Shown piece by piece: positions 3,087 through 63,098 of a stretch of 64,000 nucleotides of DNA (the first letter of the stretch is position 1; every line of letters starts with the position of its first letter). The DNA lies in the NCBI GenBank assembly GCA_000165345.1, contig CM000433.1, positions 672,001 to 736,000 of the forward strand, read 5' to 3'. The notes under the pieces were generated by a model. The model was not told where the DNA came from. It was given only the letters and a program-made list of their open reading frames with translations, and did not search any database. A program made the translations under genes and the position numbers.

Positions 3087-3326
3087 TATATTTATAGCTT
3101 TCTTTATTATTATTTTTTTAATTATTATTTTACTAAAATTTAACTTCAAATATATATAAACATGTTAGTTTCAAATTTAAATTTTCAGCCTAAATAACTA
3201 TAAATAAATTCTCCATCTATACAAATATGAATATTTCGAATTACGTGTATTCAAATGCATATTTGCATGCATGCATATTTGGCTATTTTATGTGGATAAT
3301 TACACGTATGGCGGGAAATGCAAGAA

Positions 3327-21578: not shown

Positions 21579-24500
21579 ATGTCCAAGAGTAAATATGAGG
21601 AGGAATGGGAGGAGAAGTTTGCAAAAAATATTGAAGGTAGCAAGATTAGTAGAGATATCAGTGATATTCTTTATGATATTGAGAAAAGTTGTTTAAAGCC
21701 TTTAATATACTTTTTAAAGTCAATCCCTTCTGGGTTTGCTCCACTTCCACTTCCCTCTCTGGAAGCTATATTGGAGCATAGTGAAAACGAATATGTTTCA
21801 TCTTCTTTTGGAGTTGAGAGAAGTATAGAAAGTGAAATTCGAAACTTAGGGACTAATTTCTGGTTCGATATGGTTATGAGTAATGGATCTGGGCCATTCA
21901 ATTCTAAGCAAATTAATTCTCCAAATGTATTTAATCATTGCTTAGTTAATAAGCTTAAACGTGTTTCTCGTAATGATGATTCAAAGGTAAATGATGAAGA
22001 AAAGGAACATGGTTGCGAAAATAGCACTTCTAATAATCATAATGATGATGATATAAATCATGGTAGTAATCAAGTTAATCAAGAAGATGAAAATTCACAA
22101 TATAAGAGTAAAAACTTTCAGATTGTGATTTCTCTTCAACAAATGTTGCATATTTATAGAATTGGAGGTATTAATAATGAAAATGTTTGGACAGCTTTAT
22201 TTGGAGCACAAATAATGGATCATCAAAGTAATAAAGTAGTTATTAAATATATTATGCCTTCATTTCTTTCAAATCAGATTCTAATGGATGCATATACAAA
22301 CATTATACAGATTTCAGAGCCTCAGAATAATTCAATGCAAATTTATATGTATTGTAGAAATATTTTAAAACATTTTTGTACTGATATTATTACTCCCAGA
22401 ATACTTATACATGCAAATATATTCTTATTATGGAATAGTACATTGAAAGATTTTTTCAATAATAAAACATATGATAAATTTCTCTCTGATATATTTAATA
22501 CAACTTCAGATAATTCACCAAAAGATTCAAATAACTCAAGTAATAATCATAGAAGCTCTTCTGATAGTGTCTTTTCTTTATATTCTGGCTTATTAGGTGG
22601 AACATTACCAAGCTTGCTTTTACTCAAAGTAATTGAGGAGGAATTTGCAAAGTTTAGTGTACTTACTCATTTTTTGATTCGAATCTTTGGTTATTTAGAC
22701 AGAAATAGCTGTCATGTATTTTCAAATTCACCAGATCTGAATATTACAGCTTTGTTGTACTTTTATAAGTGTGTATTCTTTCCATTATCATCATCATTTA
22801 CAGCAGCTTTATTAAATATAATTACAGTTGAGAGAGATTTCTTTGTACAAGCTTGTCTTAGAAGTTTATTTTCTCCAAAAATGAGTGACAAAAATGTATT
22901 TGATTGTATTAAAAGAATTGAGGATAGTGAGAAGGAGATAATAGAAATGGATGAAGTTGATGATGTTGAGGAGATTATATTAGGATCTTTTAGAGGATGT
23001 GAAAGAGGAACATCTTTGATTAAATGCAAAAAGGAGACCCATTTTTCTATTGATATGGATAATATTTATAGTAATTTAACAGTTGATAAGTTTCCTGGTG
23101 AAAGTTATAATAGGGTTTTATTTAATGTAATTAATAATATTATTTTAATAATGAGTAATAACTCAAGTAATAAGATTTTTCTAAAAAGGACAAATACTTC
23201 AGGGATTTATGATGACTATTTGGTTTCCAGATTTGGTAATACATCATCTTCATCTTCCTCTTCCTCTTCTTCAAATTCATCATGTTTTTTGGATAATAAA
23301 CTTAAAATGACTCGAGTTCCCAATTTTAAGATTGAGAAAAGAGTAACAGGGTTAAATAGAACATCAATAACAATAGATCCATATAGAGATTTAGAAGAAA
23401 ACCTTTTAGGTTTAAATAAAAGTTGTAAGATTTCTGGATTATTTTGGTTTCCACAGGAAGAAATCGATCAAACAGTATATAAGAATACGGTAGAAGAACC
23501 ATTTTTAAGAGGAACTTTGTATTACTATTATAATAGACTTGATGGTTTATTTGGATTTTTAGATTTGAAGCAAAGTTGTATGTTGGTCAACAGTATTTTA
23601 TTAAACGAAGAAAAAAGAGTTGTGAAAATCTTTCCAAAAAGATCTCATGCAGGATTTTTTAAACTTTTAGAGAGTGTATTGTTTTACTTTTTATCAAGAA
23701 AGCTGTTGGAGTCATATAAACAGAGTGTTTGTGGTATAATATTTCTAAATAAGAAAGAGATGAATGGTAACGATGTGGAATTATTAGATAGAAATGATAA
23801 GAATCTAAAATTTTGTTCTTTATTCAAGGGAAGTATTAGATCTTATATTAATAATGATAATTACTGTGCATTAAGATCAATTTACTTGTTGTTCTTAAAG
23901 GATACTTTAAGATCAAACTCTCATAATATTTTAAATAAGATATTATTAAAATCTGAGACTTGTAGTCGCCACAAGAAGTTAGAATTTCCAATAGGAAATC
24001 TTCAAATAGATATTTCAAAACTATCAAGTTCAATAGGAACAAGCACAAACAACCAAAATGGATCAAATAATAAATCAATTTCTACTGGCTCATCCAGACA
24101 GTCTTGCTTTGTATATTTAGCTTATGTAATATATGAATCAATAATAGAAGATGTCTGGAAAGTAATGAAAATTGAGAATGATGATTTATTAAAGAGCGAG
24201 AAGAATAACTCAATAAGAATGAGTGATAGATTTCTTAGTATTCAAATAATACTATCAATGTTGAAAAGATATAGAAGATTTGTCAAGATTTCTTTTGAAA
24301 ATGACAAAGTATTAAAAAAGATAATACATAGAGCATTCTATGATGGGCTTATATTACATCTCCAAAACTCAATTTCTCCAAACAATTACAATTTAGTTTT
24401 ATTCATGCTTTCCGCATGGATAGCTTCTTTTATTGACAATAGAATAATTCAAATTCACAGTATTTTTTCCCTTTTCAATGATGGAAAGCTTATAAATTGT

Positions 24501-25710
24501 ATAAATAGCTCAAATTGTGGTGGGTTTTCAATCGGTATTCAAGGAAAACCACAACTACAGAAGAAATCAACTCTAAGGGTTTTTTCAAAGTTTGTTTTTG
24601 ATTGGTTTAATAAATTCCTTGTAATTAGGTACTTGAATTACCAGGAATTGAATGAAATTGAAGAGATAATTTCAAATGGAATATTAATTATTGAGAAGAT
24701 TATTGAATCCAAAGACTTCTCAAAGATTTGTAATATTCTCATTAACAATATAATCAATAGTGTTTCTTTAATTAAACTACTTCCAAACTTTGAAGTAATA
24801 ATCTCATTATACAAAGACAGACTTTGTAAAAGATTACTAAATATAAATATGTTAGGCGCCAATCCAAACTTGACAAATGCGCGGGAAATTGCATGCATGG
24901 GGTTACAAGTTTGTTTGGAGCATTTTGTATTACTTTGTTTGGAGGAGAGTAGAGGAGTAGATGGGGACTTTAATTATTTGGGTGGAGAGGCGGGGATTAA
25001 TGACTTACTTTCAGCAATTGAGAATGATCGAAGTTGTTGGATGGAGACATTTCCAGGAAATTTGAGTGTAGAGGGTTACGAGAGTGAGAAAGCGAACAAA
25101 TCTTATTTGAATGATGATCGAATAGTTGGGGATTCAATGAATGTATCATTAAACAGCCTGAGGTCTTTGCTGGAGGATTTTTTGAGATCAATGTTTTCCA
25201 GAAGGAAAATAAATCATGAATTTCAAGTATTTTTAACAAGTAGTTTTAATTGGAGAAAAATGAATAACTATGTACTAACTCCAGTAGTTATGAGCAGATC
25301 TTCCTTTGATGATGAGATTAGTCAGAAGACAAATTCCGAGGAATTTTTGTATGGTTATTGTAATAATAATAAAAATTACAAGGATGTGAATATACCAGAA
25401 AAGATTAAGAAAGAAATTTCAAGATTTGAGTCTGAATATAAAAAAGAATTCCCCCATAGAAAGATTAATTGGCTCTGGGAGAATGGATTTGTAGTTTTGG
25501 AAGCCAAAGGTTTTAAGGCAAAAGTTTTAATTAATAAAAAAGAAGTAATTGGTGAATTAGTCAACTTTACTGTCATTTCTTCATTGTCAGTTTCTATCAT
25601 TTTGCTAAGAATGGGTGAATTTAAAGAAGGCCAGGAAATTACATTGGGAGATTTAGTTGATTATACGTGTTTGCCAATGATTGAGGTTGCGAGAGTATTG
25701 TTGAGTTTGT
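21579..25710 (+). CDS. Large hypothetical protein of at least 1377 aa. Its 3' end is lost in the partially N-masked block that begins at 25711.
   Basis: The ORF is uninterrupted from the ATG at 21579 and runs into the masked bases; the C-terminus cannot be determined. No family was assigned. Confidence 0.55.
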
Positions 25711-26481
25711 NNNNTNCNANTCNGAANTNNNTNAANNNTTNTNANCNNANTAANNNTCNNTNNAAANTANNNATNCNANTANCNNNNNANNANATTNTAT
25801 CATNNNNNNNNTTNGNNNAATNNAGANNNNNTNNTCNTNNTNTNTNANNNTATTNTNNANANTTGNGANNNNNTNANANTNTNTNANNANAANNTTNNNN
25901 TANGNNNCANNNTNNTTNNNNATNAACNTNCNTTTTTANNNNTNANNTNTTCNTCTTTATGATTNTTAANNTCNNTTNNNATANNCNNNGNTTNNNNAAN
26001 AANTCANNTTTANNNTNNTNANNNNNTTNNNNTTCTNTCNNATTNTNAATANNTATATNAATTANAACGANNTNNNTNANGNANNACNNNTNTATTNAAN
26101 NNTNAATNTTNNNNNTNATTTNNAATAAGNATAAGANNNNANTTTNNATNTNTNTNAANANNTTNTGGNNNTCCNGATTNATTGTNNTANATNNAATNNA
26201 NNNNANTNANTACANNATTNTNATTNTTNTCCAAANNTNATNNNATTANGCNTATCCAATAAAGCAGATGAACAATTNTGATTNTNTTNGNAATTATNAA
26301 TNCAAANCTANCANNTTNATATATAGANNTAANTNNNGTNNANNATNTNACGAGTCTNATAANTTNGANANCTNNANTNNNTTCAATNNTACTTAANANT
26401 NANAAANATTCNNTNNANNNTCAANNTCTNCAATTATACNTTTANNAGTNNTNTNANTNNTNTCNTGTTTAATAATTNCTC

Positions 26482-26505
<24 letters not shown>
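25711..26505. other. Partially N-masked, low-quality block. Both the midasin gene (minus strand) and the 21579 gene (plus strand) terminate inside it.
   Basis: About half the bases are n, interleaved with called bases. ORFs on both sides become runs of X in translation. Confidence 0.9.
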
Positions 26506-35163
<8,658 letters not shown>

Positions 35164-35496
35164 TGTTTAACTTTTTTTTTCTTCTTCTTCTTCCTCTAGC
35201 TATTTTGTTACTTCTCCACGTCTATATAACTTAGTTTACTTGGAATTATTTCGCATTTATCAACTATTTACAAAATTTCAATTATTTCTAGCTTTAAATA
35301 CTAAATAAGTACTTAATTCTTCAACTCCTTTCTTGAATTAAACTTCTTTCTCCTTCCTAAATTATCACTTATCAAACCTTGATTACCTTATTCTTTGTAA
35401 TTTTGTCATTAAATGACATATGAATTGCCCGCCATTTATTTATTATTATTTAAGAATTTTTTTCAAGGGCATGACAAAAATTAAGAATTACAAAAA

Positions 35497-35508
35497 TACC
35501 CGCCCAAT
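35497..35508 (+). promoter_or_regulatory. CCCGCC element (ACCCGCCCAATT) about 65-75 nt upstream of the U5 snRNA start; candidate snRNA proximal sequence element.
   Basis: It sits in the same position and has the same core as the element upstream of U4. Confidence 0.3.
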
Positions 35509-35571
35509 TATAACCATCATTAAGACGTGTTAATAAATTATTATTATTTTTTTAATTCAGGCCAAAATTAC

Positions 35572-35690
35572 ACCGTACTGATGTGATATCTCGTACCAAT
35601 CTTTCGCCTTTTACTAAAGATTGCCGTGTCACATCAGCTTGGTAGTTATTACCAGGTCATAATATTTGGGGAGTTTCTACACTCCGACAA
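35572..35690 (+). ncRNA. U5: U5 spliceosomal snRNA. The ends are approximate.
   Basis: 35596..35625 reads AATCTTTCGCCTTTTACTAAAGATTGCCGTG, matching the invariant U5 loop-1 region (human AUCUUUCGCCUUUUACUAAAGAUUUCCGUG). The closing stem CAATCTTT/AAAGATTG leaves the 11-nt loop CGCCUUUUACU. An outer stem pairs CTGATGTGA (35578..35586) with TCACATCAG (35629..35637). A Sm-like AUAAUAUUUGG follows at 35659..35669, then a 3' hairpin GGAGU-UUCUAC-ACUCC (35670..35685). The local segment is GC-rich against an AT-rich background. Confidence 0.7.
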
Positions 35691-36005
35691 CAATAAAACC
35701 AATGTATCATTTAAATTATCCCTTGAATTTAGGTTCTCTTTCTCAGCGTTCTTTCGTGTTTCTGCCGCTTGCATGCACTTGGGTACATGTGACGTTGTGC
35801 ATGCCTCCTCTCTTTGCCCACTCACTGCCAGGGATTCCTATACCGGCATTGCAAATCATCCACATGCAGCCGGGTTGTCAGGAGTGTTGACGTGTCAGGG
35901 CGCCAGCCCCCTACCTGTACATTAGCATGTATGGAGGACAAATATAACTAGGACACTAAAGGCAAGACTACTTCAAGGCTAACTACATTAAGTGATACGT
36001 TGGTT

Positions 36006-36153
36006 TTATTGTAGCCCTAGAGGGCCCCAGAAATTGCCATTAATCTATTAGAGAATAGAATAATAGAAGTTTAAATTGGTGTAGTTTTCAACTAGCAGAA
36101 ATCGCACATCCGCTGAGCGTCATTTGTAACGATATCTCCCCTTGCGTAAGGCT
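36006..36153 (-). ncRNA. U4: U4 spliceosomal snRNA. The ends are approximate.
   Basis: The minus strand reads AGCCUUACGCAAGGGGAGAUAUCGUUACAAAUGACGCUCAGCGGAUGUGCGAUUUCUGCUAGUUGAAAACUACACCAAUU...UAAUGGCAAUUUCUGGGGCCCUCUAGGGCUACAAU. Human U4 is AGCUUUGCGCAGUGGCAGUAUCGUAGCCAAUGAGG...CGCGAUUAUUGCUAAUUGAAAACUUUUCCCAAU...GGCAAUUUUUGACAGUCUCUACGGAGACUGG. The shared parts are the 5' AGC..UGCGCA, a k-turn-like AAUGA 5' stem-loop, the U6-pairing UGCUAnUUGAAAAC, a Sm site AAUUUCUGG and a terminal hairpin. The length of about 148 nt is close to human U4 at 145 nt. Confidence 0.65.
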
Positions 36154-36216
36154 AATTCTCACCTAAATGAATTTTCTCAAACTTAATTTTTAATACTACT
36201 AAATGATGGGTCTCAA

Positions 36217-36228
36217 ATGGCGGGCAAA
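36217..36228. promoter_or_regulatory. GGCGGG/CCCGCC element (ATGGCGGGCAAA). It lies about 65-75 nt upstream of the U4 snRNA start on the minus strand and about 110 nt upstream of the USB1 ATG. It is a candidate snRNA proximal sequence element, or an E2F-like site.
   Basis: Read on the U4 strand the motif is TTTGCCCGCCATTTG. A nearly identical TTGCCCGCCATTT occurs at 35422..35434, and ACCCGCCCAATT occurs at 35497..35508, about 65-75 nt upstream of U5. Confidence 0.35.
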
Positions 36229-36336
36229 GTTACAAATGAGTCAAAATATAACAATCTAAAAAAAATAAAGTCAACAATAGCCAATTTAATATTATATTTG
36301 GTTTTATATTGAATTAAATATTGTTTTTTCCACCAA

Positions 36337-37521
36337 ATGTACAAAGATGAAGAAAAAGAAAGTAAAAATAGTTATCATGGAAATGGTGAAAGCTTGAATT
36401 CTGATTCCTATATTTTAAAAAGTGACGAAATTGAAACAATAAGATCTTTAATAAAAGGAAAAAGAAAAGAATTAATTTTAGAAGAAAATGATAAAAACAA
36501 TAATCAAATAAGACCTTCAAAGATGAAAAGAAAGGAAACTCATAAAAATGATCTTAAAAATGGTTCTATTGAGGAAATAACAAAACCAAAAATACGAGAT
36601 TACTTTACATGTATGTTATTTATTACATTGAAATTTCAAGATATCTTTACAAAGAAAAATTCGGAAATTATAATTGGAGAGTTAAATTTTAATGAACTAT
36701 TTATCAAATTTTCATTAAATATCTTAACTGAGGTATATAAAAAATACTATTACAAAGCAGAAATTTCTTCTGAAAAACCTAAAATATATCCAACTTTTGA
36801 TTTTCAAGAAATTAAAAAAAATCCAAATGGACAAAAGATATATAACAATATTTGCTCTAATTCTAACTTTGATCTTATTGTTAATGATACAAATTATCAA
36901 GTAAATCAAAGAGTTGGATTACATTTAAGCTTAACAAGAAATCATCATATTAGTAAGAAATTATCAATCAAATTTTTGGAAAATATTATCAAAAAATTCA
37001 ATAATTGCCTGGATATTAATAATGAAATTCCAGAAAAAGCCTTTATATCACAAAGAATTGAAATTCAAACTAAATTAAAATCCTTTTGTATTCTTTTAGA
37101 CTATGATTCTGTTATTATTTTGAAAAATACATACCTATATTCCAAAAATACTAATATTAATGGTGGTATCTTTGTAGCAATTCAAATTCATCATTCAAGC
37201 AAAATTAATTACTTGAATCCTATTATTGAAATTATTGATCAAGCTTGTATTGATTTAGGTATACAACCACTTTATTCTGAAAGAGTTTTCCATATTTCAT
37301 TATTTTATATTAAAAAGTCTGATCTATATTTGGGAAATGCTGGCCATAATTCCAAAAGTGTAATTGAAACTTACAACTTTAAAGAATATCTTTCATCTAA
37401 ACTCATTTCTTCTTCTATTAATGATTTCTCAACCCTAACCACAAAAAATAATATCGTTTGGATTAATAAACTTGTATTCAGAGTTGGAATATATGAGTAC
37501 TATTTACTTCTTGATTCTTGA
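36337..37521 (+). CDS. USB1: Usb1/Mpn1-like U6 snRNA phosphodiesterase (2H phosphoesterase, LigT-like), 394 aa.
   Basis: Two H-x-S-x motifs sit at the spacing expected for a 2H fold: GLHLSLTRNHHISK and RVFHISLFYIKK (family motifs HLSL and HVSL). The N-terminus is K/E-rich. Identification is by motif only. Confidence 0.5.
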   Translation: MYKDEEKESKNSYHGNGESLNSDSYILKSDEIETIRSLIKGKRKELILEENDKNNNQIRPSKMKRKETHKNDLKNGSIEEITKPKIRDYFTCMLFITLKFQDIFTKKNSEIIIGELNFNELFIKFSLNILTEVYKKYYYKAEISSEKPKIYPTFDFQEIKKNPNGQKIYNNICSNSNFDLIVNDTNYQVNQRVGLHLSLTRNHHISKKLSIKFLENIIKKFNNCLDINNEIPEKAFISQRIEIQTKLKSFCILLDYDSVIILKNTYLYSKNTNINGGIFVAIQIHHSSKINYLNPIIEIIDQACIDLGIQPLYSERVFHISLFYIKKSDLYLGNAGHNSKSVIETYNFKEYLSSKLISSSINDFSTLTTKNNIVWINKLVFRVGIYEYYLLLDS

Positions 37522-63026: not shown

Positions 63027-63098
63027 TCCGAGTTAGTATAGTGGTTAGTATATCCGCCTGTCACGCGGATGACCCGGGTTCAATTCCCGGACTTGGAG
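63027..63098 (+). tRNA. tRNA-Asp: tRNA-Asp (anticodon GUC).
   Basis: TCCGAGTTAGTATAGTGGTTAGTATATCCGCCTGTCACGCGGATGACCCGGGTTCAATTCCCGGACTTGGAG. The acceptor stem pairs TCCGAGT with ACTTGGA (one G-U pair). The D-arm is AGTATAGTGGTTAGTAT, the anticodon loop is CTGTCAC (GTC), and the T-arm is CCGGGTTCAATTCCCGG. It is almost identical to canonical eukaryotic tRNA-Asp. A T-run follows directly. Confidence 0.85.

Follow-up and report, generated by a model that had tools for sequence, protein, structure and literature searches.

A conserved upstream box, usually joined by a GC box at fixed spacing, precedes the U4 and U5 small nuclear RNA genes of Cryptosporidium

Introduction

Upstream of the U4 and U5 spliceosomal small nuclear RNA (snRNA) genes of Cryptosporidium parvum the sequence GCCCGCC recurs at a similar distance, which raises the question of whether it is a dedicated snRNA promoter element or the GC-rich motif also found at protein-coding promoters nearby. 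The locus lies within a 64,000-nucleotide stretch of C. parvum chromosome 4 (GenBank assembly GCA_000165345.1, contig CM000433.1, positions 672,001 to 736,000 of the forward strand; the whole stretch is called the window and is numbered from its first letter), which is about 27% GC and carries long, intron-free open reading frames (ORFs), as expected of this genome. An earlier inspection of the letters (the sequence-only reading) had proposed GCCCGCC as a candidate proximal sequence element (PSE) and had asked if snRNA and mRNA promoters share a factor. A 2007 survey reported that neither PSE nor distal sequence elements (DSE) were predictable for Plasmodium and Cryptosporidium (PMC1796607); our literature search found no later description of a Cryptosporidium snRNA promoter element, and found no binding or mutagenesis data. 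We compared the regions upstream of both genes in nine Cryptosporidium taxa. We consider it probable that U4 and U5 are separate, convergent units of snRNA type, each with a composite promoter of about 33 bp in which a core resembling the upstream sequence element (USE) or PSE of other eukaryotes is combined with an accessory GC box.

Results

The U5 gene (35570-35686, plus strand; Rfam RF00020, 69.5 bits against a gathering score of 40) and the U4 gene (36014-36153, minus strand; Rfam RF00015, 95.9 bits against a gathering score of 46) both gave full-length model matches, and lie convergent, tail to tail, inside a 1173-bp spacer separating two divergent protein-coding genes, which encode a midasin-type protein on the left and a Usb1-family protein on the right. 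The 5' and 3' ends of the snRNAs were taken as the ends of the Rfam models, so that the U5 start is 35570 and the U4 start is 36153. Orthologous loci were found through protein anchors (the Usb1-like protein or its profile, and the midasin N-terminus) in C. meleagridis, chipmunk genotype I, C. ubiquitum, C. canis, C. ryanae, C. bovis and two Logan assemblies, and the convergent U5/U4 pair was present at the syntenic position in all eight. Together with C. parvum these gave the 18 promoters (U4 and U5 of nine taxa) to which the counts below refer; the gastric species C. muris and C. andersoni, and C. baileyi, are outside this sample.

Comparison of the 18 promoters revealed a USE/PSE-like box (box B) which in C. 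parvum reads CCATCATTAAGACGTGTT upstream of U5 (35514-35531, plus strand) and CCATCATTTAGTAGTATT upstream of U4 (36192-36209, minus strand), occupying -56 to -39 in the same register at each gene; the U4 box is ACCCATCAT in most taxa. Its CCATC begins at -56 or -55 in every promoter, and GT at -43/-42 was found in all 18. Whole-spacer alignment and anchored comparisons extended the box into a composite consensus of about 33 bp, CCCGCC-(9 nt)-CCATCATTnAGnnGTnTT, spanning -71 to -39, and the A at -60, within the 9-nt spacer, was likewise present in 18 of 18. When U4 was compared with U5, identity was 0.72 for the GC box, 0.79 for box B and 0.56 for the last part of the block (box C), as against 0.30-0.36 for the spacer (0.36), the start-proximal region and the 5' flank. 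Across the nine taxa the boxes were kept, while positions -19 to -1 and the 5' flank dropped to 0.3-0.4 identity. The upstream regions of C. parvum U4 and U5 could be aligned in register 0 only, with 54% identity over 100 nt, compared with 41% or less for the other shifts. A duplicated promoter as the source of this likeness was rejected, because outside the boxes, in the spacer and the flanks, identity is no higher than background.

Within the window the exact composite CCCGCC-N9-CCATCAT occurs only at U4 and U5; a third match requires two mismatches and falls inside an ORF. Matches to boxes B and C together are similarly confined to the two snRNA genes, ORF-internal near-matches aside. An A/T-rich patch follows the box at -38 to -29 of U5 (35532-35541, plus strand) and an A-rich patch at the same distance from U4 (36182-36191, minus strand); A-rich columns in this region are partly conserved (for example, AA in 15-16 of the 18 promoters) and the AAAA run of U4 is kept even in GC-richer species, which faintly suggests a possible TATA-like element.

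The distances given by the sequence-only reading for the GC-rich element were accurate. It had placed the element about 65-75 nt upstream of each gene, and ACCCGCCCAATT at 35498-35509 is at -72 to -61 of U5, while TTTGCCCGCCATTTG, on the minus strand at 36230-36216, is at -77 to -63 of U4; the near-identical copy that it had placed about 150 nt upstream of U5 is TTGCCCGCCATTT at 35425-35437, -145 to -133 of that gene. The equal distance that it had seen in the two genes is exact for the hexamer CCCGCC, which is at -71 to -66 of both and on the sense strand of each (U5, 35499-35504, plus strand; U4, 36219-36224, minus strand). Such an identical offset and strand in the second snRNA gene would be unlikely by chance, because the density of CCCGCC in non-ORF DNA of the window, leaving out this locus, is about 2.3e-4 per position per strand. 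Among the taxa, a GC box was found at -72 to -70 in 16 of the 18 promoters, and in 15 of the 18 its start precedes that of CCATC by 15 nt, which leaves the 9-nt spacer. At U5 it takes the form CCCGCC, CCCGCT or GCCGCCC and is at -72 to -70 in all nine taxa, with a spacer to box B of 9 nt in eight of them and of 11 nt, a shift of 2 nt, in C. bovis. At U4 the 15-nt distance holds for seven of nine; in C. ryanae and C. bovis no GC box was found at -71 of U4, and CCGCC was seen at -83 and -87 instead.

The CCATCAT...GT box, which the sequence-only reading had not pointed out, is therefore put forward as the snRNA-specific core, because it is invariant in 18 of 18 promoters and the composite is restricted to U4 and U5 in the window, while the GC box is lost or shifted in C. 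bovis and C. ryanae. Judged by these comparisons, CCCGCC is an adjoining component, usually but not always present. The proposal of a dedicated snRNA promoter element holds in so far as an element stands at a fixed distance upstream of both genes, and fails in that GCCCGCC is not the snRNA-specific part of it. By itself CCCGCC is common in intergenic DNA (seven sites besides the snRNA locus in 15.3 kb of non-ORF sequence), which is not so for the composite; the frequency at intergenic positions that the sequence-only reading had named as a refutation thus applies in part.

The resemblance of the GC box to motifs at other promoters in the window, also pointed out by the sequence-only reading, was borne out. 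Eight further CCCGCC/GGCGGG sites were located (at 3310, 5875, 7124, 9444, 15378, 20956, 24989 and 52708), seven of them in non-ORF DNA. The whole window holds 11 copies of CCCGCC compared to 0.74 expected from dinucleotide shuffles, none of 100 shuffles reaching 11, and ten of the 11 are outside ORFs of at least 200 aa. GGCGGG is the E2F-like motif 4, TTTGGCGGGAAV, and E2F-like motifs are the most abundant upstream motifs of C. parvum (PMC3734150); a later preprint described E2F motifs as dominant in C. parvum open chromatin (ATAC-seq peaks). The core of six nucleotides is identical at the snRNA genes, and when they are set against the E2F site pattern TTTGGCGGGAAA (a GGCGGG or SGCGCS core between a T-run and an A-run) it is the core that the snRNA boxes match. 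The T-run/A-run frame TTTCCCGCCAAA is frequent among the remaining sites of the window, as in TTTCCCGCCAAAA; the snRNA copies differ in showing no consistent TTT...AAA frame, their flanks being (A/T)nnCCCGCC(C/A)(A/T)TT. The distal copy has the flank CCGCC(C)ATTT in common with the snRNA copies, all in fixed orientation, and the latter are in addition locked at 9 nt from box B.

The abundance of this motif in upstream regions and open chromatin lends some weight to another explanation, that the boxes are ordinary E2F-type elements of Usb1 and midasin which are brought near the snRNA core promoters by the shortness of the spacers. The Usb1-family gene diverges from U4, with its ATG 184 nt from the U4 +1, and the 183-bp U4-Usb1 spacer contains no CCCGCC other than the U4 GC box, which is 113 nt from the Usb1 ATG; a dual role for this box is therefore possible. 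C. bovis U4, with no GC box at -71, has a U4-Usb1 spacer that has grown to 384 nt, which would also fit. The distal copy upstream of U5, TTGCCCGCCATTT (35425-35437, plus strand), has its CCCGCC at -142 of U5 and is 265 nt from the midasin ATG. Such a copy was found in seven of nine taxa, for six of which the midasin ATG is 243-269 nt away, while the position relative to U5 ranges from -96 to -262. Because the distance to the midasin ATG is the steadier of the two, the distal copy is better explained as a promoter element of midasin, or as an enhancer of flexible position, than as a second PSE. For the proximal boxes this explanation is nevertheless unlikely. Their spacing to box B and to the snRNA +1 is exact to the nucleotide in 15 of the 18 promoters, whereas the U4 GC box can be as near as 28 nt to the Usb1 ATG or as far as 113 nt from it, depending on the species. 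The proximal U5 box is 336 nt from the midasin ATG with another copy nearer to midasin, and the orientation of the GC box is always sense relative to the snRNA.

The fixed offset and strand, the 9-nt coupling to box B and the recurrence of the CCGCC(C)ATTT flank at this locus, where TTTCCCGCCAAA is typical elsewhere in the window, could also be taken to mean that GCCCGCC itself is the dedicated PSE and is bound by an snRNA-specific factor, as first proposed. We regard this as distinctly improbable, given that the hexamer is common in non-ORF DNA and matches an abundant published motif, and that C. ryanae and C. bovis lack it at -71 of U4 and C. bovis has it shifted by 2 nt at U5, while box B is invariant. 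It is very improbable that a single lineage-specific complex with an unusually long footprint recognises GC box, box B and box C as one undivided 33-bp site, as the constant length of its spacer (9 nt in 15 of 18) and the few spacer positions that are kept, such as A at -60, are countered by the difference in spacer sequence between U4 and U5 (identity 0.36) and by promoters in which the GC box is lost or moved with the remainder intact.

A scan of the window and comparison of the taxa also revealed a box beyond the 3' end of each gene. The U5 downstream box AAACCAATGTATC (35696-35708, plus strand) starts 10 nt past the mature 3' end and the U4 box AAACCAACGTATC (35994-36006, minus strand) starts 8 nt past it, and both are candidate 3' boxes. 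Their common sequence, AAACCAAYGTATC, has only two matches in the whole window, which are these two, and a core of CAAYGTATC or TAAYGTATC was present in 18 of 18 genes. No T-run was seen after U4 or U5, and U5 carries an internal TTTT, both of which argue against RNA polymerase III (Pol III). Viewed in the light of established snRNA gene biology, these features together with the downstream box point to transcription by RNA polymerase II (Pol II) with a dedicated 3'-end signal. Pol II is thus the most likely polymerase for U4 and U5, and AAACCAAYGTATC is most likely the signal by which the 3' end of the primary transcript is formed.

Between the 3' ends of the two snRNAs, the spacer at 35715-35985 is GC-rich within this AT-rich genome and contains GCATGC/CATGCA motifs; a block within it, TGACGTGTCAGGGCGCC, is recognisable in four close species. 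A hidden non-coding RNA (ncRNA) in this interval was considered and rejected, since there was no Rfam hit and no folding signal (z = 0.18 and -0.44 for the two strands), and the interval is poorly conserved. A telomere-template-like CCTAAA stretch noticed there by eye was also set aside, its strand and position not being kept in C. meleagridis. On the other side of U5 a perfect palindrome, TGTCATTAAATGACA (35404-35418, no strand assigned), lies directly upstream of the distal GC box. Its form TGTCA-N5-TGACA was found in seven of nine taxa, with a one-base variant seen by eye in an eighth; in C. canis the palindrome is directly upstream of the proximal U5 element.

The right neighbour of the snRNA pair is a 394-aa ORF (36337-37521, plus strand) of the HVSL/Usb1 family (Pfam PF09749, 29 bits against a cutoff of 26.8). 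It is identical in chromosome-scale C. parvum assemblies (e.g., CP044418.1 of GCA_015245375.1), is assigned to C. parvum Iowa II in protein records, and its C. meleagridis orthologue is annotated as the U6 snRNA phosphodiesterase Usb1. A gene for an snRNA-processing enzyme and an snRNA gene accordingly share one short bidirectional spacer, and do so in nine of nine taxa. The left neighbour is the midasin-type AAA protein (26482-35163, minus strand, ATG at 35163). Its length varies with the assembly: the ORF in the window is 2893 aa and about 2889 aa were called in two C. parvum assemblies, whereas the call is about 6530 aa for a further two C. parvum assemblies and 5900-6500 aa for other species, and a plus-strand cullin ORF (21579-26396) lies directly beyond the midasin-like stop in the window. 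Either the gene models disagree or the region differs among assemblies. Near the window end there is a tRNA gene (63027-63098, plus strand; Rfam, 63.9 bits).

Discussion

To the observed positions of the boxes, their sharing between U4 and U5 and their conservation in nine taxa, we would fit binding factors, a polymerase and a function for the downstream box as follows. The core would be the USE/PSE-like box (A/C)CCATCATTnAGnnGTnTT at -56 to -39, the form that the snRNA upstream or proximal element takes in this lineage. A complex resembling SNAPc would bind box B and set the start about 56 nt downstream, at an A preceded by T, and the A-rich patch near -35 may serve as a TATA-like element. 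CCCGCC, exactly 9 bp upstream of the core and about one and a half helical turns away, would most likely be an accessory activator site, which at U4 may also serve the divergent Usb1 gene. Transcription would be by Pol II, and AAACCAAYGTATC, at 8-16 nt past the mature 3' ends, would most likely drive formation of the 3' end of the primary transcript.

Several points weigh against this interpretation. The evidence comes from two snRNA genes, U4 and U5, always at one syntenic locus, so that a general role reaching U1, U2, U6, U3 and MRP would be an extrapolation. The nine taxa are related, and shared ancestry could explain part of the conservation; this is answered in part, because the boxes have been kept next to flanks that are saturated (0.33 identity). 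The likeness of box B to known USE consensuses is 8 of 10 positions at best, and the U5 box reads AACCATCAT rather than CCCA. Binding of a SNAPc-like complex to box B is putative, and the snRNA 5' ends are those of the models. At least one clade can do without the GC box, whose role may be minor or may belong to the neighbour genes. A metagenome scan with CCCGCC-N9-CCATCATTnAGnnGTnTT returned one chance match, in a short bacterial-looking contig with no snRNA; the known Cryptosporidium U4/U5 promoters were not returned either, so that the scan is uninformative on U1, U2 and U6.

A more speculative proposal goes beyond the composite promoter to the nature of its GC box. In intestinal Cryptosporidium the E2F-like motif that dominates mRNA promoters of the genus could have become part of the snRNA core promoter, held in a constant helical phase, where E2F/DP or some other GC-box protein would work directly with a SNAPc-type complex and so tie the supply of snRNA to general or cell-cycle transcription. 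E2F/DP is not known from other apicomplexans. We offer this as a possibility that is on balance doubtful. If it were true, the composite with its 3' box would mark the whole, largely unannotated set of Pol II ncRNAs, possibly including an unknown telomerase RNA.

No earlier definition of the snRNA promoters of Cryptosporidium was found in the literature searched, and the composite promoter with a USE/PSE-like core that we favor would fill this gap. The upstream box, its fixed distance to +1 and the 3' box together provide a search signature (box B, followed by (A/T)AAYCAAYGTATC within 100-400 nt) for unannotated U3, small nucleolar RNAs (snoRNAs) and telomerase RNA, and a similar promoter-based search for ncRNAs has already worked in plants, ciliates and Dictyostelium. 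The element would further give a rational basis for small-RNA expression cassettes, for which only the U6 promoter has been used so far, and empirically. The adjacent E2F-like box gives a route to ask whether the unusual reliance of Cryptosporidium on E2F motifs reaches its non-coding genes. The finding is not surprising in kind, the promoter class being known in many eukaryotes.

The closest known counterparts are the USEs of plants, algae, ciliates and other Diaphoretickes. The plant USE has the consensus TCCCACATCG. As in these lineages, the Cryptosporidium element is a short C-rich box like CCCA(T)CAT whose distance from the snRNA gene downstream is fixed, at about 55-70 nt; it is common to two different snRNA genes of the genome (U4 and U5) and is followed by an A/T-rich patch. 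The USE of Tetrahymena and Paramecium is AAACCCATAA (PMC3273799), and USEs are TCCCAWCATC in Galdieria, AACCCRTAA in Blastocystis and ACCCATAA in Auxenochlorella (PMC8287931). Between the Galdieria consensus and the Cryptosporidium U4 box ACCCATCAT, 8 of 10 positions agree, and the two boxes are similarly far from their genes. The Cryptosporidium block differs from a USE in being longer, at 18 bp with a downstream GTnTT part, in its U5 version AACCATCAT, and in being coupled in most species to a GC box at the fixed 9-nt spacing.

With the PSE of vertebrates and the PSEA of Drosophila, which are bound by SNAPc, and with the 3' box, the Cryptosporidium genes share an essential-looking core centred near -50 to -55 and a box a few nucleotides past the mature 3' end. 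There is no obvious sequence similarity of the Cryptosporidium boxes to the human PSE or the vertebrate 3' box consensus, and no octamer or Staf-type distal element is evident at Cryptosporidium U4 and U5. In Dictyostelium, the upstream sequence element (DUSE) lies about 60 nt upstream of ncRNA genes and was used successfully for ncRNA gene prediction (PMC7919456). It is likewise a C-run motif upstream of snRNA and ncRNA genes that stands out in an AT-rich genome; however, Dictyostelium belongs to another supergroup (Amoebozoa) and the DUSE has not been described as coupled to a GC box. Placed among these systems by its sequence and position, the Cryptosporidium element appears to be a lineage-specific promoter of the PSE/USE class, with the phase-locked GC box as its local peculiarity.

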